Shown: positions 1,922-38,800, counted from the stretch's first letter. The stretch: DNA of 64,000 bases from Welwitschia mirabilis (GCA_051453625.1 JBOZIK010000001.1:32001112-32065111); one strand, 5' to 3'. Notes: a model not told the origin generated them from the sequence alone. Program-made: numbers and translations.

Positions 1922-4015
1922 CTAAAAGCAAATTCTTGTACACAATCACTAGATGTTACAATAGGAAGAAATATAGAATCACTCCAAAAACAACACAAAG
2001 AGAGGGTAAGTCAATCATTTCCCTTAAGGAAGGCCTTAGAAAACTATGATAATTAAATAAACCCCATAATGTACAATATACTATAAAAGTATATTCTTAG
2101 GAAGAAGGGGCTATATAATTGAAAAATCACAGCAACACAATAATATGCTTCAAAAACAAAAAGCGTAAGTAAAAAAAAAAAAAAAAACGAGTTGTAAAAA
2201 GGAAATAACATTGACAAATCAAGAGGCAGGTCCTCTCTGTAGGAGTAAAAATATGGCCAAAACAAAGAAAAATAAATTAAAGGCGTTAAATTCCTATACA
2301 AGTCATGACTTAATGTTAGTTGAATAACTTCCAATAAACCACGCTATATCACCACCAATGCGCTTCAAATTCTGCCACCTCAGTTGCGGTCAACATGTGA
2401 AGTTAGCACTGCAATAGCACTTCAAAAATCAGGAAAAGCATAGGTTGAATCAGCGGATGATGATTGATGCTGAGGAAAGAGGAGAAGGCACAAATGAAAG
2501 ATGATAAATAGGAATCATGCAGCGCAATGTGGGTGGTGAGGCTGCATGAGAAAGACGCACAACGCTTATGGCATAGATCAGCGCAAAGGAGCCAAAAGAT
2601 GGCTATCACCTAAAAAAATAGTGTGACAAAGCCGAGAGATGGGGTAGGAGGTATCTATCAAATGCCAACAGCACACACAAGTGTAATGCGCTAGGTGTGA
2701 GGTAGGACAAGTAGCATGCAAAGATGGCTATCATGTGAAAAAACTGAGCATCGCAAAAAGAAAGTGATACATAGAAATGTAACATGAACTGTGAGATAGG
2801 CAGACACAATGCAGCGACTGGCATGACTAGCTGATAGAGGAAAGGGGTCAAATAATAATCAGGTGTATGGAAGCACACATAAAGTGTAGGCACCTGGTCT
2901 TATAAACCAAAAAAACAAATAACAAAAAAAAAAAATGCTAGAGAATGATATGCGCATAGAACAGGGTTGAAGAGAATGCACGGCACACTGCCATGGAATC
3001 ATGGCTATGGCCACTGATGAATGTGTGAAGCATGTGTAAAGACATCAATGGTGCGACTGCAGGAGTGATGGTGAGTGATGATGTAAGACACAATAGTGGA
3101 AGTGCAGCAACGAGTCACAAAGGCCACAAAAAAAAGAGGCACATAAAAATGGAGATGCACGAAAACAAGACAGGACAGCCGAACAAGAGATAACATGAAG
3201 AGAGACGGATCCCTTTTCTAAAAACAAGTGGCGCTATGATGTGTCAGCAAGAAGGCGAGTACAACTGTTAGATGCCAGTGATCAGTGACAGGATGTCACA
3301 CGACGGAGCAACAAGGTGCGCAGAGTGGATGGCGACCTAGTGAAGGTGTGTTGGATGTACACGGTTCTAGAGGAAAATGCAACAAGAGTTGGAAGTGGGT
3401 GTAGACAGATGGCATGGACAACACAGAATGAAGAGCGACATGGGAATGCATATCAACTACAGGCACTACAAAAATGATGTGTACTTGGACATGTAAAAGT
3501 GCATAGAAATGCAGAGGAAACAAGCTGGCAGGCATTGTCAGAGGACAACAAGCAAAAGAAGCCGCAACAGCAACCAAAGCGCACAAACAACATGCAAGTG
3601 GTGATGAATCACAAGGTGGAGGAATGCGAAAGGGGGCACACCAGCAACACACAAGCAGTGACAACTCGTAAAGTGGAGGGTGCTAAAAGGCATGCAATGA
3701 TTTTACACAGGCAGAGAAAGATCCGCAAAGAAAACACTGAAGAACTAGTGGTACTAAAGTGTAGGTGAAAAGAGCCGCAAGAAAAATGCTAAAGCATAGA
3801 TTAGCAATGTCGAGGTTCTTGAAACACGACATAGGAACAATGCAAGGGAATAGCAGAGGAGGAGGTCGAGGCACTTAGAATGCAGCGCAGGCATAATGGA
3901 AAGGTAGCACTAGGGTGGCAGCTACTGTCGCTGCATGGAAGGCTATTCTTTGACTGTCAGAAAGGTAAGCAACGATGGGGCAGAAGGTGGCAAAGGTGGC
4001 AATGCATACAACCAC

Positions 4016-4027
4016 GCTCTGATACCA
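4016..4027 (-). promoter_or_regulatory. Primer-binding site (tRNA-iMet), TGGTATCAGAGC
   Basis: Plus strand reads gctctgatacca, 2 nt from the LTR-terminal CA. Confidence 0.93.
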
Positions 4028-4029
4028 CT

Positions 4030-4234
4030 TGTACACCTGGCAAGCCAAATTTCTCAATCTAAAGTTTTGATTATTTATCACCCTTTAAATGCTAAGGGTG
4101 AATCCCCTTTTATAAATACAAATGACACACATTTTAAGGGAGACACTGTTTGTTTCATGATGTGTTTATGGGCTAGTTTAGGAATGTCTATGATGATTAG
4201 CTTGTGAATGTGTGCATGAGCCACTATTTTAACA
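4030..4234 (-). repeat. 5' LTR (~205 bp) of the Tnt1-like element
   Basis: It ends ...GGTGTACA just before the PBS and has a TATTTATAAAAG TATA-like motif. The outer start TGTTAAAA is inferred because no second LTR is in the window. Confidence 0.7.
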
Positions 4235-4237
4235 TAA

Positions 4238-5520
4238 ATTAATGGGCTGGGCCAGGTCAATATTTCGTATACACAGTCTCTGTGAGTACATCGGGTGGAT
4301 TATAGGTAAATATTTCGTATACACAGTCTCTGTGAGTACATCGGGTGGATTATAGGTATAATATGCTGACAAGCATTCCTACATATTGGGAGGTTATTAC
4401 AGTACGTCTAGGTGATAATGTACTGATGATTTTGTAGCTCTCTATAATGAATTTGATTAATTCTAAGTTTCATCAGAAGTTGCTCGAAAGGATTTTGGAC
4501 TCATCATAGATTGTGAAGATGATGGCCAAGATCCCTACTCTTACTATGTGAAAAGGTATTGAAACATTGTAGGCTACTAAAGCTATTGTACTTGCCATTT
4601 CTATCGACAATAGTATCGCTTGTGGTCAGCTAGTATCTTAGTAAGGGCCTTAGGGTGGGTTTGTGTTGATTGTTATTCAGAATATAGCTATAGAAAGTAG
4701 TAACATAGAAGCTGTACTAATGTTTTTAAGCTTTTTTTCACTTTTTTTTTTTGGTATGAAAATGATATTAGCTCATGTTTATGTATATATAATTGCTTCA
4801 GGGAATGTTAATATTGTGGTTTAAATATGGTTATTTTTATGAAAATTTCATTTTTTAATGCAAGATGCCAATTCTTTTTATGAATGATTAATTTGGTAGT
4901 TGTAATTATTTATGATGACTTAAAACACCATGAAAAGTATCTTATGATGTAGACTATTGCATTATGAGCATTGACAAGAATATGGTAAAAGTATGATGTA
5001 TTTTTCTTAGGCCAATGGATAAGGAGAATACTTTTTCACAGAGCTTAATAAGTTTTTAAGGTTTTAAAAAGGACATGACATCATATAAGATTCACAGCTA
5101 ACCTTCAAGTAGGAATATGAAGTATAACAATTTAAGAAGATGATTGATAAGACAGAACCCTTTGGAAAAAAAAAAATTATGAAACTATTTTTCTAGATGC
5201 TATGTAAATAGTCTAGATGAAAAAAATTTTCTTATATATTCAAATAATAGTAAGGCCTATTATAAATGAAGCATTAGATATAAAAAACTAGTGTCTAGCA
5301 AGAATGTTGTTTCTCATTAATGTAGTTTTGCTAATACCAAAATTAATGAAGACAATAAAAACATAGATTATGGCTTTCCAACTAAAATGTAAAGTTGCAT
5401 AGCTTTCTCATGAAAAAAAATCTAAAGAGGCAAACATGTAATATTGAAAAATGAAGATAATATGAAATGCTTGAATATCATACAAGGTTGAATAATGTTT
5501 AAAATCTTGCATGAAGATAG
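4238..5520 (+). pseudogene. Unidentified spliced gene relic (exon-like blocks ..4355, 4477-4555, 4802-4829, 4900-4990, 5011-~5520)
   Basis: AG/GT-bounded blocks have compatible phases and join as WAGPGQYFVYTVSVSTSGGL*|KLLERILDSS*IVKMMAKIPTLTM*K|GNVNIVV*I|CCNYL**LKTP*KVSYDVDYCIMSIDKNMVK|ANG*GEYFFTELNKFLRF. The last intron is only 20 bp, and the product is not recognised. Confidence 0.4.
4259..4358. repeat. Perfect 50-bp tandem duplication
   Basis: aatatttcgtatacacagtctctgtgagtacatcgggtggattataggta occurs twice in tandem. Confidence 0.95.
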
Positions 5521-21301: not shown

Positions 21302-24300
21302 ATGACCTTAACATTGTAAGGTAGATTACAAATCTTACCAAAGAGCTTCACACCCATTTTAACTAACACCTATTTAACTACCAGAATCATGTCCAATCTT
21401 AGGATGATCTTATATGATGATCAAAATTGGGAGGATTGAAATGAGAATTTTATTTCAAAAATGCACATATATGGTTTTGATATAGATTTTTGTTTAAAAG
21501 AAGAGCATGTCCATCTTCAAGATTCAAATGAAGAAAAGGTATGGACAGCTATTAATCGCAAGCTCATGGAGATAATACAAAAATCAGTGGCCACTTTGCA
21601 CAAAAATTTGGTTGATAGAAGTAAGTTTAATTATACCAACTATTGTACTTTATGTGATAAAATTCATGCAAAGAATGATCTAGAACTGATTAATCTCATC
21701 ACGAGCATGAACAACCTTTATTATAAAAGGGGGAAATGCATAAGCTTGTAGCTTAAATGATAGATATTAAGGCAAGGGTTAATAAGATAGATCGAGTAAA
21801 TAAAGTATGAATTCATTACATCAACTTGGTTCATTACTATTTAGAGGATTTATATTTTGTATCTATATTCTATCTCTTTATGGAAGTAAGTGGCTAACTA
21901 ATATGAATTTGACATGCTTAGTAATGATCTTATTGTCATAGAAGCACAATTTAACTTCCTAGATTCCTTAGTCTCTGATGCGGTATTTGAAGTTTATCAT
22001 TCTTGAGGACTTCTTTATCAACATAAATAGTCTTCTAGCAACTCTCATTCACTTAAGGTATTGCATCATGAAAAGTATAAGAATCCATAGAAAGAGCCAA
22101 CTATGAAGCCTAATTAGACTCAGCCAAATAAGAAGTAATTAAATTTAGCATGTTGCTACTTTGAAAAAACAAATATTAGTGATAATGATGTAGAAGACAA
22201 GGTCATACTCTGGACTTTATGTTGGGTACCTTAGAATAAAATGGAATTTACACCTAACATCAATGTAATTACTAAAGAATATAAATCCCTTAATAATAAA
22301 AATTTTGAGTCACATGCAATTTTTGGTAACTGTAAATTTATGGATATGAGTGAGCACATACCTATTAACAAGACATGAATTCTTGACATAGATGTTACTT
22401 GTCATATAACCTATTGATGTAATTATTTTAATGACTTTGTCATAGCACCAAGTTAGGTTAATTTGGCAAATAAAACTCTAGTTCTAGTGGAAGGCTATGG
22501 TTTGATTACCCTTAACTTAACATTACTCTCTTCATAGACTCTTTATAATGTTTTGTATGTGAATTCTTTGAGGTTACATCTTCTATCTCTTTTCAATTTG
22601 GTACAAGAAGATGATGAAGCACTAAGTGGATATTTATGATTTCAATTAAGAACTGGTTATGAAAGTCTACATGAGTAGAAAGCTTATTTATCTTTAAGAT
22701 TATATCAAAATATGATAGATTGCTTACATAATTTCCTAAGATGAGATCTCTCCCTTACTACTGTGGCATGCTAGACTAGGACATCTTGTTATCGCATCAT
22801 GAATATGATGCATGAGAATGGCCACTAGCTTTTTTCATCCATTTCATAAAATTTTCCTTAGTGTGGTGTATGTCTAATTGGAAAATTAATTAGATAATGG
22901 TTTTCAACAAGTAAGTGATATGCTGATAGAAAATATTTACTTAGTCATAGTGAGCTATGTAAACTTATGCTAGTTTCCACTCCCCATAGCTTTTATTATT
23001 TTATATATTTTATTGATAACTATTCCTAGATGATTTAGATTTATTTTATCAAGTCCAAATATTAGACTTTAAACATTTTCAAAAAGTTTAAACTCAAAGT
23101 GAAAAAGCAATTTGATTGTATAATTAAGAGTTTTCACTCTGATAATGATGGTGAGTATACACCTATTGAGTTTAAGGACTTTCTTACTTCTACACAAATT
23201 TATCATTTAAAGATCTATCTTGGAACACCTTAATAAAATGGCATTTTTTAATAATTTAATTGCATAATTATGGATATGACACATTTCATAATGTAATTTA
23301 GTGGTTATAAGACCTATTTTTGGGGTGAATCAATGAATACAAATATGCATCTTCATAACTACATTGGTTGATACACTAAAAAAGGAGTATCTCTAGCTGA
23401 GAAATTATATGAGTTCAAGCTAAAACTGCACCACTTTTAGTATTTGATTGCAAGTGATATGTCCATATTGCACACAAAAATTATGAAAAATTTGGAGTAC
23501 ATGCTCATATTAGCATATTTTATGGGATATTCAATCAACCAGAAGGGTTATCGAGTTTATCTCCTAAAGCATTATAAGAGCATTATTTCTTGTAGCATCA
23601 TCTTTTCAAAGACTTCAATCAATGATTCTTAGCTTAATCTTTCAAAGCTCTATTTTTGCTCTAACATAGTAACTATTTTAGATGCTTAATATCCTATAGT
23701 TAAGGAGGGAGATGTAGCCACTAGTTCTACTCTAGTTTCTTCCATTAATATGACTTTTTTGTAACCTATAGGAATTGCGTAATTTGATGCGCTATGCACT
23801 CTTAATCATGGTTCCAATAGCAGTTTAGTAGGTTCTCTGACTGAAGAAGTTGAGGTTACCTATAAGCAATATCTAATTACTTGGTTATAATATACTCTTT
23901 AAGGTGTTCATAATAATGAAAAGGGTAAAACTAGAACTAGACATGGCTCACATACCTCTCATAATAATAATGATGATAAGCCCCATTTGAATGTTGAAGG
24001 TTAAGCAATCTCATGTAAAAATGCTATTCAACATCATCATTAGATAAAAGTCATCTAAGAAGAATATGATAATATTATTGAAAATGATACTTGGAAGTTA
24101 ATAAACCTTTATTAGGATGCACAAAATTACCAAACAAATGGATTTTCCATAATAAATATAATGTGGATAATACTCTTAAGCAACATAAAGCTTGGCTTAT
24201 TGCTATAGGCCTATGACAAGAGACAGAACTTGACTATAATAAGTTTTTACTTTAATAGAAAAATGGACTACCATTAGAATAGTAATTACCTTGGTAGCAA

Positions 24301-24668
24301 AAAAAGGATGGAAGATTTATCAATTGGATATAAAGATTGTCTTTCTTCATGGGGACTTAAAAGAAGAAATTTACATGACGCAACCAAAGGATTTTAAAGA
24401 AAGGCAAAGAATACAAAGTATATAAATTAATCAAGTAGAGCATGGTATAATAAGCTTGAAAATTATTTAAATTCCTTTGAATTCAGATTATGTAATTGTT
24501 AAGATGTGGATGTCACATTATTTAATAAATCTGATAAACACATAGTGGTATAGTAGATGATATGCTGATAACTAGAAGTGATGAAAAAGATGTGAAATAA
24601 AGAAAAATCACATTGAGTAGGTATTTAAGATTTCTAATATTTAATTGGCTAGAATCTCCCTAGGTGTA
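21302..24668 (+). pseudogene. Copia gag-PR-INT-RT (N-terminal part), many stops and frameshifts
   Basis: Motifs include *ILDIDVTCHIT (PR), LWHARLGHL (pre-INT), HSDNDGEY (INT), IVFLHGDLKEEIYMTQPKGF and VDDML (RT). It ends at LGV. Confidence 0.9.
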
Positions 24669-24684
24669 CTACTATAAATACAGG

Positions 24685-24970
24685 TTTTTAAGGAGTTTAT
24701 TTTGAAAAATGCCTTAAGTATAGAACTTTTTAAGACATTTATTTTAATAAATTCCTTAAATGAGGCTTACGAAAAAATTTTTAAGGTATTTTTTAAACAA
24801 ATGCCTTACAAAGCCATTTTGATTTATTTTTATGGCATTTTTTAAAGGAATACCTTAACAATAAAGCAACTTTTTAAGGCATTTACTGGAATGAACTCCT
24901 TAAATAACTTAAGTTTTTTAGGTGTTTAGAAGAAAAATGCCTTAATATTTTTAGGAATACCTACCCTTAA
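24685..24970. repeat. Left subterminal repeat array of the CACTA-like element
   Basis: About five inverted pairs of ttaaggcattt ... aaatgccttaa variants. Confidence 0.88.
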
Positions 24971-27880
24971 TAAAACATTATTCACACGCTATGCATTAAA
25001 CCTTAGTTTTACTCATACTATGCACTAAATGTTAGTTTTACTTGAAATTGTGCTTTCTTAATTATGAACAGAGTGGAAAAAGAATAAGAATATTTGATTA
25101 TTGTGCTATGCATCTTTCAAGTGGAGAAATAGCTTCTTGAAGTCTGTATTAAGATCTTTGATTTATAGAACTAAGATTATTCTAAAATTTACATAATTAG
25201 TACTTTCTACTAGTGTGTTTAAACATTGTAGAGTTATATAATTTAGATAAAATTTTCTATAAAATCATATGCTCTTGGTAAATGCTAAATGTTGCAAAAC
25301 ATTTTTTGTAAAATTTTCACATGAAAATTTCTATGAAACCCTAATGCTATGGACATAAGGTTTTAGTTTTATTTGAATCTAAACACTGAGATAAAATTTT
25401 CTTCTATTGTGATATGAAGCATGAAGACAAGTTGCAGAAGGTAGCATTAAATCATCTAAAAAAAATTTGTGGTTGGTAGAAAACATGAACTCTATTTGGA
25501 TTTGGTTATAGTAACTAAAGGCAAAAGAGGGGTATTTTGGAAGAAAAGATAAGGGATACTCATTTTGTTTTCACCATATCATCTCTATCTCTTATGGATA
25601 TGTAAAGAACACAAAGGAACATTCTTGCAATAAAGTTAAAACAAAAAGGAAAAGGAAAGGAAAAAGAATGATAAATGATTATAATAATTTAAAAACTGCA
25701 ATAAATCATATAACAACTTTTTCTACGTCTAAAAGGTTTTTATGAATTTTTTAGAAACTCTAAGGGGAATCCTTTATCTTAAAAAGAATTAAGGAATTCT
25801 ATAGATTTATATAATTGTATTATCTAGAAAGGAAAATAGATGCTATTATGTTTTTTTAGTCTTTTGAAGCTGCAATATTTCTTTAAAGAAAAGCAAAAAA
25901 GTTTAAATAAGTGCTTGTGATCTTGACTCAAGAGGTTTTTAAATTATCATTTATAAGCAAACTAGATAATGAATGAGAAACTGCCCAGTGAGATTTAGCT
26001 ATTATAAAACATGAGAGATAAATATACTAAAGAGATGATTTAGTAACCATTAAATTATACTTGTTTTGTACTTATGTCTTACTTGCGTCTTGTTTTGGAG
26101 ACAAGTCCATGTCTATGGCCATTCATGAATAACAACAATTACAAACAATAGTCTATCATTTGTATAAGATAACAAAGTAAAAGACATTAAAATGAAATAA
26201 CTTTAATTATTTTATAGAGAATTTGCAAGTGTTTTTTGTATTTTTTGAAAGCATGGAGAGGCATTTAGATTATCTGGTGAGAGTCTTTTAAGATTTACTA
26301 CATCTAAAATGTTATTAATAAACATGAAACAAGCCTTATTCTAGAAAGTTTCACATGGAGACACTTGGCCTTGTGTATGCGACACTGGTTCTTTGTGTTT
26401 CATCATGTAGCATGAAAGAGGAAGGTCATAAGAAAGGTAGTGACTAGGTAGGGAAAAGATAGAGAAACAGAGGGTGTTNNNNNNNNNNTTAACACCTTAG
26501 AGAGCCAGGGGTAAAACATAGCAAACCAATGGACAAGATAAAACTGATGGTCAAATAGAGGACCCCAAGAAAGGAGATGTACTAGAGTATGACACAGTAG
26601 GTAGAAAATAAGAGGAACACATAGTAAGACAAAGAACAAAGAAAGCACAGTAAGTAGGGTAGAAAATAGAACAAAAGAAAAGCTTATTTACAAAATAGAT
26701 GATGATGAAAATGCCTAAACTAGAGTGGTAATAACAGCTATGACTATAGTTTTTTCATGATTAGATGCTCTATTTCATCTCTATAGGAGTCATGAGGCCT
26801 AAGGCATAAAGTAGACTCCATAGAATTTCTACTTGTAGATGCGTTTGGGATATTTCAAGTATAGAACCAAAGATACTATTGAACGTAAAATGGGCTCCCT
26901 CTAATTGGGCCTGAAAACATTAAAGGGATTTTAGTAGTTAACTAGTCATTAATTGCAAGACTTTCTAGCATCTTTCTCAAACCTAATGTAGTTTTCATTC
27001 TTACTTTTATAAAGTGCTATTTCCAATGTGGGCACCATCCCCCTATTAGTTTCAATTACTCTTGCAAAAATTACAAAATAAATAGACTTGTAATGCCAAT
27101 TTTATCCTTTAACACTGTAGAGTCTATAAATAGAACTAATTCTCTTCCCTAATCTCTTTTATTTCAAAAAATTGTCTTACCAATTAAGAGTGTCAAAGAA
27201 ACATAACTGATGAATGAACGAGAAGATCTCAGATATACCACAAAGAATATTGTATTCTATTAAAGGAAAAGAGATGAAACTTTAAAAGCGATAATCTCTG
27301 TGCTTGCTTCAGTAAGCTCTATTAATGTTTAATTCATTAGTTTGGATTGTGTGGTTACCTCTAGATTAGGTATATTATTTTCTACTTCTTTCATCCTTTA
27401 GAGTGAGTTTTCATAATGTATTTATTGATATGTCTATTGGACTCTATTGGATTGTTATTTACATGATTGTTGAAGTGAATAGATAAGGGCCTATAAGAGG
27501 ACACTCTTTATAACGTTTAGAGTTTATTTCTTACTTAACAAATGTATTATGTTTTAGCTTATTTGAAAAATAGAGGAAACATTTAGTATAATGATATGTT
27601 AAACATAAGTTCACTCTGCTTTAATGGAAGCACCCTTTCTTATTTTATGAATAAAGGATTTAGATCTAGAGTGAACAACTAGATTGTTCACTTCAAGACA
27701 AGCCTCATTTTCTACTATAGTGTTAAACTTGAGATTATTTTATTACAAAGAGCTTACAATTATCTCAATGATTTCAATGATAGGGAGGTGCATGATGTAA
27801 TTATGTTCAGACATGTTCATATTGAATAAAGACTTGCTTGAAGTTTTCTAAATTTATGTCAAAATAAAAAGCTTTATCAG

Positions 27881-28286
27881 GTAATTTTAGCAATAATCAA
27901 GCAAGAAATCCTTGTAAGATGCATTATTTCAAAAATAAATCTTATAACCCTGATTGATATTATCTTTGCATGAAGAGATCCTATATTGCTATTACTAATA
28001 ATTATATGAAGTACATTACTGCAAAACTCTAAAATATTACCTACCATATCAGTGCCCACCATTCTAAAGGAAATAAAGGAAATCATGAGTAAGGGATTTA
28101 AATTAAGTAGCTCTAGTTATTTTTGTGCATCTATCCATATCCAAAACCACATGAAAAAGGTAAAATAAAGCTCACTATGTAACACAAGACTAAAGAAGTT
28201 AATATTGAGGGTGAAAGAGATAAAAGATGTTGAAAAAGAAGAGCATAACATAGAAGATCCTAAATTTCTACAAGAATGGACAAAAG
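27881..28286 (+). pseudogene. Unidentified captured exon (135 codons), probably with upstream exons at ~27200-27312 and ~27665-27787
   Basis: It is bounded by cag| and |gtaag. One frame has 3 stops: VILAIIKQEILVRCIISK...LPTISVPTILKEIKEIMSKGFK...EDPKFLQEWTK. Confidence 0.45.
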
Positions 28287-29195
28287 GTAAGGAGTTAAGG
28301 GTTTAGCGAGACTTATTAGTAAGTCCATTTCTTTCTTTCATGAAAACATAGAAAAATCATAAAAACATCTAATACTAAGTTTTCCTTCTTAATTTTAATC
28401 TTTAATAGTATGCCTTCACTTATTTTTCATGAGAACATATAATGTATAGTTAATCTAAATATTTTCTAGCTCGATTAAATTTGAGTTTATCTAAAAGAAT
28501 ATGCTTTTTAATGTCATGGCTTTTATTGAAATAACAAATAAATGTGCATTTGTATGAATAGTTACCATGATGAGCCCTCAGTATTTAATGTCTACTAAAG
28601 GAAATGATTCTTGAAATCTATATGCTTTGGCCTTAATTATTTTTATTAGAAGAGGTAACTTCAAATTCTGGATGCTAATTCAAAAGGCTAGTTTTGTAGT
28701 GCCTTGATAAGGAGGTATTTTTACACTACCATTTGGTAATAATAAATGCAGCATGCTATTATCAAGCATGTTCATACATCCAACTTTCAATTCCCTCTAT
28801 TTTCTTAAATACAGACATTCTAAACATTGAAACACTACAACTATGTATTCCCCTACTGCATTAGACTTATAGATTATTTCTCTTAAGGAAAGGCAATAAT
28901 GTAGGAAGAAATAATACTTTCTTATCATTTCCAATCTTACCAGGTAGGATTCTCTACATCTCTCCATCTCTTAAGGATTTTGTTTTACTTGTTGATTTAG
29001 AATATATCATAACATTTGATGCTTGAGTTCTACTTTAGAGTAATTCTAAAGTCATTGGATTACTTCTACATGATTTCTTTTTGATGGTCTTAGAGATCAA
29101 GATTTGGAACTATAAATTAATGGGATGTGGGTGACTATGAATTTAATTTTTTTTTTAATTATAATCTTTAGAGAGAATCTTTTTCTATTAAAGAT

Positions 29196-29598
29196 ATGGT
29201 GCTTGCAAGCAAGGACGAGAGAAAAGCATTCTTTGATATTGCAGCATGGATGTTCAATGTTAGTATATCTATTGGAATTATAATGGTTAAAAAAGCCCTA
29301 ATGTCTAGATATATCATTATATTTGCAAGAACCTTAACTAGTTTAAAGTTTTGAAAGGATCACTATTTATTCATTATCTTGCTTGATTGCTGTTGGAATA
29401 AATCTCAGCCAATTTATCTACATTGGGAATTTCATAGCACTCTCTTTTCAAGTTCTTAGTCATATGAAAATCACTTTTTTTCTCATACTAGAATTCATGT
29501 TTCTTAAGCATGAGGGATTAAATTTATAGGTTATTATTGTTATGACATTGGTTATAATTAGAATGGTTTAGTATTGAAATTCATCTTCTAAACTTGGC
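29196..29598 (+). pseudogene. URGT: Captured fragment of a URGT-type (UDP-rhamnose/UDP-galactose) nucleotide-sugar transporter; N-terminus fused to C-terminal helices
   Basis: MVLASKDERKAFFDIAAWMFNVSISIGIIMVKKALM..FARTLTSL matches the family motif [68 protein letters not shown] matches [23 protein letters not shown]..EGLNL. Confidence 0.88.
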
Positions 29599-29859
29599 CA
29601 TCTATAGAAAATACAACATTATGAATGGAAAAATCATGGTTCATTCTATCATGTTGGTATACAAAAAGCTCTAAATGGGCATGTATTGATTTTGATACTT
29701 CAAGGAATATGGATAATAATTATGAAGAGAACAATTTAATACCACTCAAGAAGTATATAGGAGAATTTATTACTTTAAAGTAGAGATTCACTCTTCCATT
29801 GTGGCATTGTCTTGAAACAAGAAAAGGGACTCAAAAATTACCGAGAAAAAGATGATAAT

Positions 29860-30240
29860 TTGGTTTATCATTTTAACCATATGAACTCTTCTTCATCCAA
29901 TGTATCAAGGAACTATTTTTATTTTTGAACTTTTAGTATTTTGATTACATACTTTGTTACTCATTCCCTTTATATGTTGGTTGGTGAGACATAAATGAAA
30001 ATTAGATTTGTAATTAGAATTATGTTTTAATTTTTAAATTTTTACTACCATATTTGGTTGAGAAATCTTGAAAGTATTAGAGGCAAAGGAGGATATCAAA
30101 TTCCATTAGGATTCCTATTTAATATTATCACATGTGTTAATTATACGATAGAGATTTATCAGTGATTAGGTTTTAATATTTTTACATAGATAGTCACTAG
30201 TGATGCTTTTCTAGTGGAAGTAACAATTATAATGACAATG
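29860..30240 (+). pseudogene. CER10: Captured fragment of very-long-chain enoyl-CoA reductase (ECR/CER10, steroid 5-alpha-reductase family), C-terminal half
   Basis: A single 127-codon frame with stops: [63 protein letters not shown]. This matches ECR [31 protein letters not shown]. Confidence 0.92.
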
Positions 30241-31567
30241 AATCCCTTACAAAAGCAAAGGGTCTATCTACACTCTAGTGGTCTTCCAAGTAGAATAGTT
30301 TAACATAGGATTCTTTCATTGGATTTTTCCTTCATGATGCCCTAAAATTCTACTAGTTTAGAGGGTTTACATTTCATTAAATTGGACAAACCTCAAAGTT
30401 TTAAAGGCAATGAGATATTTCATATTCAAAGAATGTGCTTTTTACATCATAAAGTAGTAATCTCTGATATAGCTTCGAGGATATCGTGTCATTTCTATTT
30501 TTTTCTAGCAAGAGTAAGAGTTTATTCTCAGAGAACATAGATGGGATGAATTCATCTAAAAAGAAGCATTTAATATGTTGGTTACCATTCTCAATCAAAT
30601 GCATTACACATATGTTGAGACATAAAAATCATTAATAGACAGAAGCATCAATTTTGATATTTAACCTACACTATAATTACTTTAGTGTAAGTAGGCCTCT
30701 TATTTTTCCATTGTAAATAGTTTTTAGCAAATTGGTACATAGTTTATCTATGATACAAGTACTCATAATTTTGATTCCATGGTAACAAAGATGGTATTAA
30801 ATAATGAATTAAGTACAACCCAATAGGTGTACTAGGATGCTATTAAAAAAAGACAATGAAATTGCAAGAACAGATGCTAAAATAACAACCAGTTAAGGCC
30901 ATTTCATGGTATTAGTCTTCTTATTTTAGATACACACAGTCTTTCATGCTAATTTATAGAGATGAGTCTTATGAACAAGCACCAAGTATTGTGCATATTG
31001 GGCTAAGACATGTTTATCTAAGAGCTTATCCTTTGTCCTTAGCCCAAAGAAGAGGTAGCACTTCTTCATCTTTATAGCTTTCTATGATACATAGATTTCC
31101 AAGTTTTCTAAGTTAATTTATAAGATCCAAGATACAATGTTTGTATTTCTAAAATCATAGAAAAACAAAATCTTCACTTTTTAGGATAAAAAGTATTTAA
31201 TGATATTACTTATGATCCTAAGATTGCAAGTGTAACATGGCCAAATTATAGCTAGAATCCTTTTACAACCTCTATTTTTTTAAGATCCTCTTTAACTTAA
31301 ACCAAAATTATTTATTTGTAGTATAGGTGATATAATCTAATTGAATTTATTTAATGTAAAAATTAAAGACATGGCCTTGTTGGATAGTCATAATATGTTT
31401 TAGCTATGAAAAAATGCACTTAACTAGGTAATATATCTACATGAAAGCAATTTAATTAACTATCCTTTTATTAATTGAATTAAGTAATTGAATCCACTAT
31501 CCTTTTATTAATTGGATTTTTCTATCAGAAGATATATCATTTCACTAGTATGAAATGCTCTCTAGGG

Positions 31568-33412
31568 ATGGTTGAGACAAGTGTAGGTGGTAGTAGTGGC
31601 AATAAGTATTAGGATTATATTTGGCAACTTGTAGAGTTTGAGAAGATCTTGGTCATTGGAAAGCTATTATTTTAAATAGTTTTATGTCAATGAGAATTTG
31701 ATTTTTATTTCTTCTTTTTCATGAACACATAATTTTCTTTCACAAATATTGTATCACTCACACTAAGTAAATTTTTGTAGTTATGCATGGTTATGACTGA
31801 CTTGTTTCTATAGGGACATTTATGGGTTTGCTATTTGTCCTCAACATATACAGTGGTATCATGAGCATGCTAAAATCTATATGATAGATTCTTTTATAAA
31901 AAGTCATATTAACAATTATTTTCATCTTTTCTATTTTAATGAAATCTTCTCTTTTTGCTTAGAAATAAGAGGAGGAAGAATTAGAAAGATGGGAGAATTT
32001 TCTTAAGAATTATGTTTAGTTATGTTCCTTATCTATAAGAGATAAATCTAGTACTAATGACACTATCACTAAAAATGAATTCTTAAAATGGTGAAAAAGA
32101 GTTTGTTACCTTTGTTGAGTTTTTAACTTAAGATATACAATAGGAAAGGGAGAATAATGACCAAAATGAGTTAGATATAAGACCATATTTAGATTCAATA
32201 GAACAATTACTTAGTGCACACATTAATAAACAAAGGATATCCCTAGCCTCTAAAGATGCTAGCAATACAAAGAAAGCTTTTTCAATGGATGAAACAAAGC
32301 ATTCTAAATTGGGCAATCTTATCTCTAAAGAAGACTTTGAAGAAGAATTTTATGATGTGGAGCTATCTCATTCAACTCATAATTCTTCAAACCATAAGAG
32401 CATTTTTAATGATTTTGTTGGAAGTAACCTTAGATCATAAGCTTATTTAGTAGAAGCATCTAACTAAATTTAGGAATTGGAAAGTCTTATTCATGGAGGG
32501 GTTTTTATGTCTCTTAGAAAGGAGGTGTACTATCATTAACATATTAATTAGATGAGGTTATATATGTTTTTTAAGCCTTTCTTTAGTATGAATCCTAGGC
32601 TTATGCAAATGCAGCTATGACAAGAATTTCTTAGAAAAGATAAATAATTACTATAATGACTTGCTTATAAGGAATAAAAATTAAGGATTGGGAGATAGTA
32701 AAGATTATTCCCTTACAGACAAAGAATAAACTAATAGTGTTTCTAATTTAAAGATTTTTAAGAAATGGAAAAGCTATATTGAAAAGGTGAAGTGTAAATT
32801 TGTAGTGCATGTTTCTCACCTTTTTTTACAATTTTTTATGTACATTGATCAAATGTTTTGCATTTGATTTTTAGGCAGGATCTCCCTTAGACATTTCCTA
32901 GTCATCCAACACTAGATAAAAATGGGTAAAATGCCCTGATGTATTTGTTAACTACATATTCATGCCATGATCTAGCTGTTGGACATTGTTAAGTATCATC
33001 AATACTCTTGAATTACATCTAATATTTTCCAAGGTGTCACACAATACATGCTCATAATCCTTGTAACTTTTATGCTTTAATTTTTACTTTTCTTTCTCCA
33101 GTAATGGGAGTCCTATGTTTATAGCTAAAGAAAACAGTGGATGTTGGCCTTACATTACTTTTTCTTGTTATACAAAAGAATAAGACATATTTTAAGTGAT
33201 TGTTTGAATGAACATCATAACAATCTTTTATGCATGTAAAATCTTAGAACAAGAGACATTCATAGAATCATTTTCTAAGTAGTTTAACTTTTAGAAAAGG
33301 AGGATTTTATGATAAATTTTAAAATTTTTATTTTTCTTTCGTCATGCATGCAGGCAATGAGATTTTTCACTAGATTGATTTTGGTATTGATGACAGAGGA
33401 AAATGCATTTTG
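31568..33412 (+). pseudogene. Captured 5' part of a TBC-domain Rab GTPase-activating protein gene with introns (exons ~31568-31651?, 31814-~31882, 31963-32524, 32615-32786, 32879-32992, 33354-33412)
   Basis: Exons translate as DIYGFAICPQHIQWYHEHAKIY; EEEELERWENFL; DIRPYLDSIEQLLS; ELESLIHGGVFMSLRKE; KWKSYIEK; DLP*TFPSHPTLDKNG*NALMYLLTTYSCHDLAVGHC*; AMRFFTRLILVLMTEENAFW. This matches TBC DLPRTFPGHP...VGYCQ-AMNFF...EENAFW. Most boundaries are GT-AG. Confidence 0.93.
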
Positions 33413-33994
33413 GTATGTCATTTGTTTTTTAATTCTTTTTTGTAGAACATTTATAAATAGTATGAGATGTTGCTTTTGAGCTCATACAAGACTATCAAAT
33501 AATTATGCCTCTAATGGGGCTATGGATTTTTCTTCCTTAATTACTTTTAGTTTTTGAAGATCAAAAAATGCAAATAGCAATAAAATATGAGGTAATGATT
33601 TTAAGAAATAAGGGACCATCTCAAAAGAGGTATCTTATTCACAGCCATTTGGTTATGAGTATTTTGTATTCTTATTAATCAAAACCCACTTTAATTAACA
33701 AAGAGATAGTTAAAAGAGAGATTTATGATATGGAAAGTTCTATGTATCTCATTAGATCAACTTTGGAAGAAGAAAGTATGGAAGGATCTCTATTAATTTA
33801 GCTCCAATAATAGATTATATATTTATCTTTCAAAATACTTTCATGTGAGAAGCAAGAACTTAAATACTTGAAAAACATGCATGATATGCATCAGTTACTA
33901 GTAATAATAAAAACCTCAACACTTAAATGTATAAATAATAGTATTATCAAATGAAAAAAGAGTGGCAAATCATGATTATGTATTCTTTATTTTT

Positions 33995-34485
33995 TTCTCC
34001 TTAAGATATACCTTTTAAGGTGTTTATTTGGTAAAATGCCTTAAAAGCTTTTTGAGGCATTTATTTCATAAAACATCTTAAAAGCTCTTAAAAAACCTTT
34101 AAGGAATTTATTACATTAAATGAATAAAAATGTATTTTAGGGTATTTATCTCATAAAANNNNNNNNNNNNNNNNNNNNNNNNNNNNNNNNNNNNNNNNNN
34201 NNNNNNNNNNNNNNNNNNNNNNNNNNNNNNNNNNNNNNNNNNNNNNNNNNNNNNNNNNATTTATTACATTAAATGAATAAAAATGTATTTTAGGGTATTT
34301 ATCTCATAAAATGCCTTAAAATCCATTTTGAGTGGTAAATGCCTTAAAAAGATTTTAATTTACTTGTTGGAAAAATGCCCTAAAAGAATTTTTAAGGAAT
34401 TTTTATTAAAACACCTTAAAAATACCTTATTGGCTTTAAGGTAAGGCTTTTTAAGAAATTTTGTGAATAAATGTCTTAAAGCCTA
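33995..34485. repeat. Right subterminal repeat array of the CACTA-like element (contains an N gap)
   Basis: The same ttaaggcattt/aaatgccttaa motif occurs in both orientations. Confidence 0.88.
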
Positions 34486-34502
34486 TATTACTTATAATGG
34501 TG

Positions 34503-35325
34503 TAGAAATTATTCAATAAAAGGATGGAATATTCTTATTGCAAAAGAAGTACATTAGAGGCTTAATCCAAAAATTTAGACTAGAAGATACAAAATAAGCT
34601 ATAATTTCTTTAGAGAAAATTTCAAGATATCTATTGAAAAAGACTCAGAACCTACAAATGAAATAGAATATACAAGTATAGTAGGAAGTCTAACTTATAT
34701 AACTAACACTAGACTAGACATATCATATGTTATTGATGTGTTGTTAAGATACCTTTATGTGCTTAAGGTTACTTATCTGAATGTTGTAAAAAGAGTATTG
34801 ATATACTAAAGAAGGAAAAAGAGTTAGGTCTCACCTATTTAATAAAAAAAAACTAAAAAAAAAAAAAAAAAACTCTTGATTCATTCTCAAGACATAGTCT
34901 AACTTAGATTTAGCTAGAGAAACTAACACTTCATTATTAAAATTAGGGTAGATCATATTCTTGAAAACATTACCTCTATCTTAGTTATTAAAAGGTCGGA
35001 GAACTATAGTATGATCATTTGCTAAAGTCAAATATATAGCTACTTTTAAAGCATGTAAATAAAATGAATGGTTGAGGAAATTGTTAAAAGTAGTGAATCT
35101 TAAATAGACTAAAAGTAGTGAATCTTAAATAGACTAACTCTTCTGAAAAATCTAGTTCACTATACTAGAATAAAACACTTTCACATTAGGATTCATAAAA
35201 TTAGGGAACTCATACAAAATGAAATTATTATACCATTATACTTTTTGACTATAGAATAAACTGTCAACATCCTTATCAAATTACTTGGTTGAGAGAAGTT
35301 CTACTATTTCTAATCTAAGACTATA
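34503..35325 (+). pseudogene. Copia RT (C-terminal part) and RNase H
   Basis: Motifs include EIIQ*KDGIFLLQKKYI, YTSIVGSLTYITNTRLDISY, TRIKHFHIRIHKIRE and TVNILIKLL (the last corresponds to ADILTKPL). Confidence 0.9.
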
Positions 35326-35689
35326 TTGTTAATGAGTTTAATAAAACTCATTTCTTTTTTGTACTTTATAGGCTTTATTTGACTTGTGAGTCTTTGATTA
35401 AAGATACACCTGATCCTACTACTATAGGATGTGTAATATAAATATGGCTTAGTATTATGAGATGTGTAGTACATATTTTACCCTAGCATTATGAAATGTT
35501 TAATGCACATAATAAGCCCATCTGCTATGATATGTCTAGTAGTAAATTAACTACTTCTTTAATAAAGTAGTTACCTAAGATGGTAACTCCTTTTTAGAGG
35601 TTTTATCATAGGTCACATTCCCAGGATTTTCTCCTAGGAATTTTGGTTTTTCCTTAGAAGAGAATCTATTTACACATTAAGGGAGCAAT

Positions 35690-35857
35690 TGCTAAGGCTT
35701 ATGCACATCGTGGTTCCATGCCTAGGAATGCATAAAAACCCTAGTGGTATGCTTAACTTTATAAAGCAAGCTCTTCTTGCAATAATTAAAGGAGGAAAAT
35801 AAAATTTAGTTTTTGAAAAATCTTGTGTTATAATCTTGGCACTCTTGTTTCTCAATA
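35690..35857 (+). repeat. 3' LTR of copia family 'B'
   Basis: It starts TG right after the PPT and is homologous to the other three LTR copies. Confidence 0.88.
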
Positions 35858-38800
35858 ATATCCAATATAAAATCAAAGTTTTAAACCCATTACTTTGTTA
35901 ATGAAAGATAATACTAGTTAAATTAGCATCCTTTTAATAGAAACATGTTATTAGTCAAATAATGGGTAAAGAACTTTCTTAGAATGTGGAGAAGTATTTA
36001 AGAAACTAGAGAATATAGGATTTACAAGATTTAAAATTTTTGAAGAGCAAGAATTCAAAATGTTAACATAATTATCCACCATGCTGAACCCAATAATATA
36101 GTGCAAGATGTAAAAATATTACTAGAAATTAATCTACTACTAAATTTTAGTTTTAATAAGTATGTTTTGATGAATTTGTACAATATTTCAACATTAAAAG
36201 AAAACATTAAAAAGCTAAAACTCTAGGTATACATTATTTCTAATCAAACATTAATGCCCAAACTAGTGAAAATAATTTTTTTTTCATTAAGCATATACAT
36301 AGATGAACTCATCATTGTATAAAAGAATCCTAGTTTTATAGACACAAAAGATCCCAAGAGTTATTTCATCTTGATTTTAGTACCTTTTTTGAAATTCCAA
36401 CTTATGTAAAATTTAATGAAGTGAAAATGAAGTTAAGATCTTTGAAAAATGGATATTCTATAAGTTCAAATGAAATATTTTTCTTATAAAAATATCTTTA
36501 TTATATAGAGTATTATCAAAGCTATTTTTGACATAAATCATATCCTATGTAAAGATCACTACATATTTGTGGTAGAAACTTTACCTCCTGCATCATACCC
36601 CTACAAAGTAGAAGATTAATTCACTTACTTTTTTGGGATAAAGAGAATGAGATCCCTATCTTTAAAACCTAAGATATTAGACATACCATAGTAACATACA
36701 CTATTCTATCATAACATCATGTTAGATTATTTAGAAATTTTGTTGAAGAAAGATTCATTCCAAGAAAGATGCAAAGTTTTCATATCAATTACAAATTATG
36801 CTTCTAGTTTTACTTATGTAGGAAAATATAGTTTTGAGTGCTAAACTACTAAAGAATATCTTAAAAAACATATTTATTTCATTAAAGAGATTATTTAGAT
36901 CCTTATTCAAGTAATATACTATATCAAAGAAGATGATGAATGCAAAAAGGAAGAATAAATAAGAGTAGACATCTAGTCATACCTTAGTTTTAAATATAAG
37001 TGTATAATTTCACTAAGTGATCTATTAATACTACTTGTTCAAGTGCCTGAATCATCTTCTTACCCTAAGCTTACTTCATAAAGATAATTTACTAGAATAA
37101 ACATTATCCTTGCTAAATTAAAAAAAAAGGTAGCTCAATAAAGGGGAATTAGAATCCTTATGAAAATGATAGAAAACTTAAGATAAAAGTTTTCTTACAA
37201 TTGAGACTGATCCTTTTTATTATACATAAGAAAAATAAGTGGAAATTATGCATAAAATTGAATTTGTACAGTTTGACAACTCATATGAATAAGAAAGAGA
37301 ATTTAAGTCATCAAATATACCCTAGTGAGTTTTATATAAAAATAATTTTCCTTGAAAAGTTTATTACTTAAAATCATATCATATGGATGTAATTATAAAA
37401 TTAAACATCTCACTTCATTTTATATAAGATGTAAAACAAGTTAGAATCAAATCATGGCACTTGGAAAACTAGATTCTTTAAATTCACATAGCAAACTATT
37501 TGTCTTAGAGAAGATTTTTAGTAAATTTCAATATGTTTGACTTGAAAGATATCTATTTACTTATTATGAAAGGATTATAAAAGCCTTAAAATATTTAAAT
37601 TATATTTTAAATTAAAAATTAATTTATAAAAACTAGCATCTAAATTTTTATTAAATTAAAGCAACACTGAGTGAATGTTAAGCTATTTTGACTGATAAAA
37701 AGAGATAAAAGGAAGAAGAGAGAGAAAAATAGAGAAAATTTAGAATAATAGAATTATAAATTTTTAAAACCTTTAAAATACTTAAAATTTGTACTAGAAC
37801 AAGTTTCTATAACTAAATATTCAAGATTAAGTAGAATCAATTAAAACAGATAGAAATACTTTGTTTGGAAAAAACTATAGAACTTATAGTCAACCCTATT
37901 TTAATCAAGAATATTAAGAAAAATAAAAAACTTGAAAACACATGGATTGCAAATTAGGAAGGATGAAAAAAATACTACAAGATAAGATCTTGAATTTTAA
38001 AAAAAACACTAATAATAATAGAGAAAATTACTATGCAAAATCACAAGAATTAAGATTTCAGAGTTTAGAAATGTTTCTAAGTAAAACTGCAACTTTGACT
38101 ATAAATGACCAAAAAGGATGTTTTAGAGGCCAAATTTGGGTTTTTGCTAATTGAAAATGAAAATTTTTAAATCATGATAGAAATTTACTAACAAAATATC
38201 AGAACCATTAGAGTTTCCAAGAAAGAGTAATGGTCAATACAAAAACTAAAATTTACTAGTCTACTTCAATTTTGAGAAAAGGAGAAAGAAGAGAAAATAA
38301 TTCATGTAAAAATAAATATTTTATAGATAAATGTAAATAATAGATTTACAACTGATGCTATAATATCAAAACCATCACATTTCCACGTGTAATTCATGCT
38401 TGACATTTGAGAACTATCAAATGGTGCTACAGTGCCAATATAGTCATGGAAATGGCACTACAACATTATAGATAGTTTGAAATATTACTACCTAAACTTT
38501 CAAGGATTAAATTAACTCAATTTTATATTTTATAACTTATTTACCTGAATATATCAAATTTGACTTAAAAATGATTAGAAATGTATATTATAGATTTAAA
38601 AATAAAAATTTCAAGGTAATGATATCCTAAAAGTTTCTAATATCATATAGTGTCATGAATCCCATGTCAAAATGAGTTAAAATCATTGCATTATTAATTG
38701 GATGAGTTATGATGATGGAAAAGAAACTATGAATCATTTTTAAAGCTAATAGATTTAATTGATCCTTTATGCTCTACATTTTCATCCTTGATCTTAACCT

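Follow-up and report, generated by a model that had tools for sequence, protein, structure and literature searches.

A probable CACTA-type element, now dead and carrying pieces of at least four host genes, inside a copia reverse transcriptase of Welwitschia mirabilis

Introduction

How does a decayed copia reverse transcriptase (RT) come to be split by almost ten kilobases of DNA in which pieces of unrelated host genes lie one after another on the same strand? The question is raised by a stretch of 64,000 nucleotides (nt) from Welwitschia mirabilis (GCA_051453625.1 JBOZIK010000001.1:32001112-32065111); we call this whole stretch the window, and all positions are counted from its first letter. 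A reading made from the sequence alone had proposed that positions 24667 to 34502 form a Pack-CACTA element, a transposon that has no transposase of its own, is built from fragments of host genes and moved as a unit. Here we present an analysis of this insertion, of its borders and ends, of the genes from which its interior was drawn, and of its relatives in public sequencing runs. The answer that we arrive at is that the insertion is probably a non-autonomous CACTA (En/Spm)-type, Pack-CACTA-like element of about 9.7-9.8 kb that is now dead. Three lines of evidence carry this answer: the target bases duplicated on either side of the insertion, the arrays of short repeats just inside both of its ends, and the pseudogenised gene pieces between them.

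Borders and ends of the element

The ~9.8-kb insertion that splits the decayed copia RT is real. On the left, positions 24243-24665 match the Pfam family RVT_2 (PF07727) over profile positions 55-108 (E=4.3e-10, 40 bits), and on the right, positions 34502-34660 match profile positions 206-242 from their first residue onwards, with an E-value of 0.056 that is weak when taken alone. Both junctions carry the same six nucleotides, GGTGTA (24663-24668 and 34499-34504), an overlap that, for window positions paired at random, is equalled in 791 of 200000 cases, and therefore the insertion is flanked by a target-site duplication of 3-6 nt. With the insert and a single repeat copy taken away, the L-G of the left side meets the V-E-I of the right side in the RT frame, a join that we take to be the conserved RT motif expected at this place. 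With a duplication of 3 nt, GTG, the element occupies 24667-34499 and measures 9833 nt, including 110 N. The end that had been proposed at 34502 takes in the right GTG of the duplication, and under a 3-nt duplication it has to be drawn back to 34499. That the element moved as a unit into the copia RT, as was also proposed, is borne out by RVT_2 on both flanks together with the duplicated junction bases.

The dense inverted subterminal repeats that the sequence-only reading described at both ends are amply confirmed, and they are a strong signature of the element. A family of 41-nt repeats (D1) has eight copies, three at 24686-24819 and five at 34013-34392, and many inverted repeat pairs link the two ends (I1, I5-I8, I11 and I14); further repeats run within each end, on the left D1, D2, D4, I2 and I3, and on the right D1, D3, D4, D6, I12 and I15. 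All five exact copies of AATGCCTTAA in the 64-kb window, as well as its single reverse-complement copy, fall within the two ends. The 12-mer AAATGCCTTAAA, allowing up to two mismatches, is matched 61 times in the window: 9 times in the left 334 nt, 13 times in the right 510 nt, 3 times in the 9-kb interior and 36 times in the other 54 kb, which places 22 of the 61 matches in the 844 nt at the two ends. At the ends the copies alternate in strand with a spacing of ~20 nt.

The outermost bases are less well preserved. What had been called degenerate CACTA terminal inverted repeats is weak as an inverted repeat, and its tips each lie one transition away from CACTA. In the register that agrees with the duplication, the first 15 nt of the two tips are identical at 8 of 15 positions without gaps. 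With gaps allowed, the outer 40 nt of the two ends align at a score of 22, where random window segments give 10 +/- 4.6 and 30 of 2000 random pairs do as well. The register used previously makes 10 of 15 terminal bases alike, but it puts the right GTG inside the element and leaves no duplication. A pattern derived from the tips, with at most one mismatch, has four matches in the window (two of them the tips themselves) where 2.2 are expected, and is not informative. It is plausible that clean CACTA tips have been eroded by C>T change, because the observed/expected ratio of CpG within the element is only 0.09.

A separate observation concerns the left repeat hairpins (24796-24887), which gave sub-threshold Rfam matches to MIR9746 (28.1 bits, cut-off 79) and MIR5200 (26.8 bits, cut-off 70); these reflect the hairpin shape only and are no evidence of a miRNA gene.

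Gene pieces and unassigned interior

Between its ends the element holds at least four pseudogenised pieces of unrelated host genes, all on the plus strand (Table 1). The proposal that fragments of several unrelated host genes are present thus stands, with four families identified.

One piece comes from a TBC-domain Rab-GAP gene. An open reading frame (ORF) at 32144-32437 matches the protein P0001, which carries PF00566 and PF23436, with E=3.9e-29 and 67% identity, and tblastn extends this match to six collinear blocks at 31806-31907, 31996-32085, 32087-32530, 32631-32816, 32870-32989 and 33351-33416/33440, with 31806-33416 corresponding to residues 16-348. A direct match to RabGAP-TBC is found at 32870-32989 (E=0.0076). 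Because full-length relatives of 820-890 aa align over residues ~16-370 only and end near 33440, the piece is the 5' two-fifths (~40%) of the gene, in which the introns have been retained. Among named proteins, those closest to this match come from gymnosperms.

The second piece is the C-terminal half of a very-long-chain enoyl-CoA reductase (ECR). Positions 29899-30270 match Steroid_dh (PF02544) over profile positions 7-132 of 150 with 43.2 bits, where the cut-off is 22.6 (E=5.2e-11), and positions 29857-30213 match residues 147-272 of the 309 residues of PDB entry 22of_A (art-1, a solved very-long-chain enoyl-CoA reductase) with E=9.2e-8. Both this fragment, previously labelled CER10/ECR, and the TBC Rab-GAP fragment had been recognised from the sequence alone, and both are upheld by these scores.

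The third piece, previously assigned to URGT, belongs to the TPT family of nucleotide-sugar transporters; the family part of that assignment is sound, and URGT is a putative name. When 1.84 billion representative proteins were searched by phmmer with the ORF at 29347-29526, 69 of them matched at E<=1e-3 (best E=1.6e-11), and TPT (PF03151) was present at E<=0.001 in six of the ten long hits that were scanned, four of them above the 30-bit cut-off. The transporter ORFs themselves have no Pfam match, and it is their phmmer relatives that give the family; a word-index search with the N-terminal ORF at 29172-29351 against longer proteins returned five candidates, none at E<=1e-3. With the protein P0017 as query, tblastn places residues 1-52, from the start methionine, at 29196-29351, and residues 164-238 at 29374-29598. 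Since the alignment passes from residue 52 to residue 164, an N-terminal exon is here joined to a C-terminal part, and what lies between them in the protein is absent.

The fourth piece had not been named before and is probably a fragment of a pectin acetylesterase gene. Two collinear blocks 77 nt apart match PAE (PF03283), the first at 27608-27697 (profile 21-50, 16.7 bits, E=0.0042) and the second at 27775-27912 (profile 48-93, 25.8 bits, E=7.3e-6). This piece is fully decayed, with 6 stops in 76 codons. Expressed per 100 codons, stops number 7.9 in the pectin acetylesterase piece, 3.0 in the transporter, 4.0 in the ECR and 2.9 in the TBC piece, and 8.1 over the six frames of the element. 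One piece at the background density and three below it fit captures of different age, although this is not proof. By tblastn, neither the TBC nor the transporter gene recurs elsewhere in the 64-kb window.

The pieces also differ in their introns. The ECR piece (>120 codons) and the C-terminal transporter piece (81 codons) are intron-less, and the TBC piece keeps five introns; the intron-less pieces may come either from long terminal exons of the donor genes or from processed transcripts.

Together the four spans make up 2733 of the 9833 nt, or ~28% of the element. The sequence-only reading had exon clusters on both strands; here the minus strand of the element gave no exon-like match in Pfam, and the one piece to be added, the pectin acetylesterase, is on the plus strand. 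Searching plus-strand frames 2 and 3 against the PDB with phmmer gave no match at E<=1.

Transposase families were likewise absent from the Pfam scans, whether all six frames of the element were read through with X, or its 121 stop-free ORFs of >=30 aa were searched (one Steroid_dh match, one weak UBA match at E=0.035), or shorter read-through pieces of the plus strand and the whole minus strand in nine pieces were used as queries. Long-frame scans of this kind are insensitive: the ECR piece was missed in them and found with shorter queries. The earlier observation that no Tnp2/TnpA motifs can be recognised agrees with every Pfam scan, within the limited sensitivity of these scans for decayed remnants.

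Table 1. Features of the insertion and its flanks, with positions counted from the first letter of the window
Feature	Position	Strand	Description
Left flank, decayed copia RT	24243..24666	+	Last 3 nt, GTG (24664-24666), are the left duplication copy
Left tip, TACTACTATAAATAC	24667..24681	+	Starts TACTA, one C>T transition from CACTA
Left subterminal repeats	24682..24946	.	9 AAATGCCTTAAA-type 12-mers, alternating strands
Interior without protein family	24947..27607	.	Pfam on both strands and ORF scan null; holds the 10-N gap
Pectin acetylesterase N-terminal fragment (probable)	27608..27912	+	Exon-like blocks 27608-27697 and 27775-27912; PAE PF03283
TPT-family nucleotide-sugar transporter fragment	29196..29616	+	N-terminal exon 29196-29351 abuts C-terminal part 29374-29616
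Very-long-chain enoyl-CoA reductase (ECR/CER10-type), C-terminal half	29857..30270	+	One frame, no intron, 5 in-frame stops
TBC-domain Rab-GAP fragment	31806..33440	+	6 exon blocks, introns kept, 10 in-frame stops
Right subterminal repeats	34013..34480	.	13 copies of the AAATGCCTTAAA-type 12-mer, alternating strands; contains the 100-N gap
Right tip	34481..34499	-	Reverse complement starts CATTA, one C>T transition from CACTA
Right duplication copy, then copia RT continuation	34500..34806	+	GTG (34500-34502); RVT_2; junction overlap

Related copies in public sequencing runs

A search of public runs for words sampled from the sequence found two runs of one organism (A) in which fractions of 0.61 and 0.56 of these words are present, and runs of a second (organism B) in which the fraction is ~0.1; no RNA run was listed among the public runs holding these words. 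The contigs of four runs, X1, X2, X5 and X9, were aligned to positions 23000-36000 at 80% likeness. These data are contigs and not whole copies, and the individual contig pieces described below are among 32 listed matches out of 86,363. The depth summed over contigs, which is not a copy number and is not used as one, is ~2000-2900 at the element ends versus 14-370 inside; in run X5 the bin 26906-27339 has no cover.

The sequence-only reading had made much depend on whether the termini are shared with other copies, and they are not unique. At each of the borders of a ~34-nt unit within the end repeats (24760, 34012/13 and 34046/47), between 116 and 233 contigs of X1 run on into unlike sequence. 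The corresponding numbers of loose-end contigs are 178-213 in X2 and 82-110 in X5, with 24760 listed in neither, and 116-224 in X9, where a nearby place, 24714, is listed with 11 contigs. The ~34-nt terminal unit sits in hundreds of different contexts, because beyond its borders the agreement of the consensus falls to 0.43-0.49. Joints such as 24761>34013 were considered as deletion derivatives of the element and rejected, as their two sides reach only 25-35 nt within the repeat units.

Relatives of the interior are found as well, and in each run several contigs differ from the window at interior positions. In X1, a base other than that of the window is carried by 9 contigs at 27846 in the pectin acetylesterase piece, 6 at 29230 in the transporter, 5 at 30258 in the ECR and 22 at 32671 in the TBC piece, and in non-coding parts by 17 contigs at 33684 and 22 at 33847. 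Among the matches listed, contigs of both organisms that are 82-93% alike cover 24779-25332 (leading from the end repeats into the interior), 27738-28441 and 31333-31943, and diverged contigs of both organisms also cover 25957-26582 and 26693-27332 in the part to which no protein family was assigned. Two further diverged contigs among these matches, at 29115-29760 and 29248-29821, cross the junction between the N-terminal and C-terminal parts of the transporter, and this rearranged junction is not expected in the donor gene. The simplest reading of these data is a subfamily of siblings that already had the cargo, within a much larger family that shares the terminal motifs. Because diverged copies of the interior, including the transporter junction, occur in two organisms, capture of the cargo probably took place in an ancestor, with amplification afterwards, and not by assembly at this locus.

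Assembly gaps and the surrounding window

The element is interrupted by two assembly gaps, a run of 10 N (26479-26488) and one of 100 N (34159-34258). The larger one is flanked by an exact 53-nt duplicate (D3; 34106-34158 equals 34259-34311) and is probably spurious, looking like two overlapping contig ends that were joined by a spacer. Because of this exact duplicate, the true element is probably ~150 nt shorter than assembled. A contig of organism B reaches across the smaller gap (26316-26684), differing at 2 positions and having 12 gap letters.

The stretch around this smaller gap, 26316-26700, has a character of its own. It is purine-rich with a GC content of ~0.42, and a 362-nt contig of organism B matches it near-exactly, whereas most other interior pieces of organism B are 82-93% alike. 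It has no protein or RNA family in Pfam or Rfam, and an organelle or rDNA origin was rejected, there being no Rfam match. It might be a conserved or recently spread nested repeat, or else organism B might hold the very same copy of the element.

The window as a whole is very AT-rich eukaryotic DNA, with a GC content mostly of 0.20-0.33 in 1-kb bins, and contains 11 runs of N. Pfam scans of 60 ORFs of >=62 aa outside the element gave a single match, to a retroviral SH3-like domain, and no Rfam match in the whole window reached its gathering score. Outside the element, these 64 kb contain no intact gene and form an old region of repeats only, with heavy methylation.

Far to the left of the element, a GC-richer island occupies 2001-4300, with a GC content of 0.38-0.47 versus ~0.25 around it. 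Purines are strongly favoured on its plus strand, where the GC skew peaks at 0.27 and the AT skew at 0.38, and ORFs of unusual length, the longest of 128 aa, are present in both orientations; five of these ORFs had no Pfam match, no Rfam family was found in the island, and its sole repeat is a 50-nt tandem repeat at 4254-4364. The island may be a younger, less decayed insert.

Discussion

If the insertion is the CACTA-type element that we believe it to be, its history can be sketched as follows. The gene pieces would have been acquired by an ancestor of this copy, perhaps where elements inserted close to one another were excised incompletely and a hybrid with host DNA between its ends stayed behind, and this ancestor would then have been amplified into a subfamily. 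The copy that inserted as a unit into the copia RT, duplicating 3 (at most 6) target bases, would have been moved in trans by an autonomous CACTA relative, whose transposase would bind the subterminal motifs. The element would later have been silenced, and methylation-driven C>T decay would have eroded tips and cargo alike, until neither movement nor coding was left to it.

Several observations weigh against this account, and they concern its borders, its cargo and its motor. The length of the duplication is ambiguous between 3 and 6 nt, neither tip, TACTA or CATTA, is CACTA, and the terminal inverted repeat is weak. Among the matches listed, no contig is shown to bridge the junctions of the element, and none links two different gene pieces, which leaves a shared order of the cargo without support. 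With two N gaps inside the element, the continuity of the assembly is without independent proof. About 72% of the element has no identified origin, and the description of it as built from fragments of many genes holds for a part only; of the four pieces, the pectin acetylesterase has both of its blocks under the Pfam cut-off of 26.6 bits and without a PDB match at E<=10. Neither an autonomous partner nor a transposase was found within the 64-kb window, and a badly decayed transposase remnant may yet lie inside the element itself.

The element could be of the kind we propose and still owe its cargo to something other than serial capture from unlinked genes: the pieces might stem from a single capture of one host segment that was already chimeric or rearranged, or the element might have grown once inserted, by internal rearrangement, deletion and filler DNA. 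Such a history would suit four pieces that share one strand and a compact 6-kb span, as well as the internal deletion or fusion of the transporter from 29351 to 29374, and the absence of introns from ECR and transporter beside their presence in TBC does suggest different histories or a later rearrangement. We consider it unlikely all the same. Each piece is another part of another gene (an N-terminus, a fusion of N- and C-terminal parts, a C-terminal half and the 5' 40%), a mixture that is common in Pack-type cargo; the pectin acetylesterase has decayed to the background density of stops and the other three have not, which fits different ages; and sibling contigs already have the transporter junction, which makes the rearrangement older than this copy.

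The class of the element is another matter on which one might differ, for tips that are not CACTA, a weak alignment of the terminal inverted repeats and the lack of a transposase by which to classify it would also be seen in a non-autonomous transposon with inverted repeats from another or an unclassified superfamily, one with a duplication of 3-6 nt and a superficial likeness to CACTA. Mutator elements make duplications of 9-11 nt, more than the six nucleotides at most that are shared here. The same limit excludes hAT, with its 8 nt, and the duplicated bases are neither the TA of Mariner nor the TTA/TAA of PIF (PMC8903248); hAT, Mutator, PIF and Mariner were accordingly all rejected on duplication and ends. 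Both tips are, besides, a single C>T change away from CACTA in DNA whose CpG ratio is as low as 0.09, and arrays of ~12-nt motifs in both orientations lie within a few hundred nucleotides of both ends, so that we think an origin outside the CACTA superfamily highly improbable. Scarcely credible, finally, is an origin without any cut-and-paste transposition, be it as a Helitron, as a segmental insertion during break repair or as an artefact of scaffolding. Arrays of gene fragments on the same strand are typical of maize Helitrons (PMC1947982), and the two N gaps might raise the suspicion of an artefact; yet a duplicated target and matching end arrays are features neither of Helitrons nor of break repair, an exact 53-nt overlap flanks the 100-N gap, and a contig spans the 10-N gap. 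On the strength of the duplicated target sequence and the inverted repeat arrays, a Helitron was rejected outright.

A bolder idea about the proposed CACTA-type element is that its cargo is a fixed, same-strand array whose four sources (a pectin acetylesterase, a Golgi nucleotide-sugar transporter, a very-long-chain enoyl-CoA reductase and a Rab-GAP) all serve the secretory and cell-surface pathway, and that a subfamily with this array has reached tens of copies in two related plant taxa. We give this very little credence. If it were true, the choice of cargo would be non-random and would reflect capture from genes that are open in the same cells, and the array could be a source of chimeric transcripts or of small RNAs aimed at the donor genes.

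What the locus does offer is a multi-gene, Pack-CACTA-like element with a well-described anatomy, from a plant genome that is very rich in AT and heavily decayed. It shows the amplification of such elements together with their cargo, and it shows that a single element can mix intron-keeping (TBC) with intron-less (ECR, transporter) pieces in unequal states of decay. It is also a warning for annotation, as the four pieces are pseudogene fragments within a transposon and not genes. No new question is opened by it, the capture of genes by CACTA elements being already established.

Comparison with known systems

En/Spm elements carry arrays of ~12-nt motifs, direct and inverted, near both ends, and are known by a short target duplication and CACTA-like tips. 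The insertion described here resembles them in its ~12-nt arrays in both orientations, in its short target duplication and in its CACTA-like tips; unlike autonomous En/Spm, it yielded no Tnp2/TnpD or TnpA-like coding in the Pfam scans. The CACTA features found are the duplication of 3-6 nt and the subterminal repeats in both orientations at both ends, and the Pack-TYPE features found are the lack of a detected transposase, an interior with pieces of host genes and the presence of more than one copy, seen as contigs and not as whole copies.

CACTA elements that carry pieces of several genes have already been described, both as Tgm-Express1 and as Pack-CACTA. The earlier suggestion of an undescribed gene-shuffling family is not supported in view of them, and that of an unusually large serial capture from unlinked donors is a conjecture. 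Tgm-Express1, a member of the CACTA superfamily reported from soybean by Zabala and Vodkin, is 5.7 kb long and holds fragments of five unrelated genes (PMC1947982). It is like the present element in having no transposase, inverted-repeat ends, and pieces of unrelated genes with both introns and exons, five there and at least four here. Unlike the present element, it is young and genetically active, and its cargo is spliced into host transcripts; here ~9.8 kb lie in a dead copia host site, with eroded tips and a stop-ridden cargo, and ~28% is assigned to genes. The same account makes the likeness to maize Helitrons plain, which also have several gene fragments in the same orientation within one element and act as exon shufflers (PMC1947982). 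Helitrons, whose ends are a 5' TC and a 3' CTRR with a hairpin, differ in having no target duplication and no inverted subterminal repeats, and both are present here.

Pack-CACTA elements of Arabidopsis, maize and rice are, like this element, non-autonomous; they too end in CACTA-like sequence, are flanked by a short duplication and enclose coding DNA of the host. In Arabidopsis, Catoni et al. describe elements with a clean CACTACAA start, 3-bp duplications and an autonomous partner, CACTA1, and put forward for them the model of closely spaced insertions and incomplete excisions that yield a hybrid enclosing host DNA (PMC6379663). Unlike those, the present element has degenerate tips, and its duplication is of ambiguous length, 3-6 nt versus 3 bp there. 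In maize, according to Gisby and Catoni, no other Pack-TYPE elements draw on as many distinct loci as Pack-CACTA, whose width correlates with the number of loci; the same report gives the CACTA duplication as 5 nt for rice and maize, and its packFinder criterion for Pack-TYPE elements is more than one copy, with no singleton (PMC8903248). Beyond the CACTA superfamily, the capture of gene fragments by transposons has been counted genome-wide, including in gymnosperms (PMC13477047), and that survey bears on the present case, as gymnosperms are the source of the named proteins closest to the TBC match.

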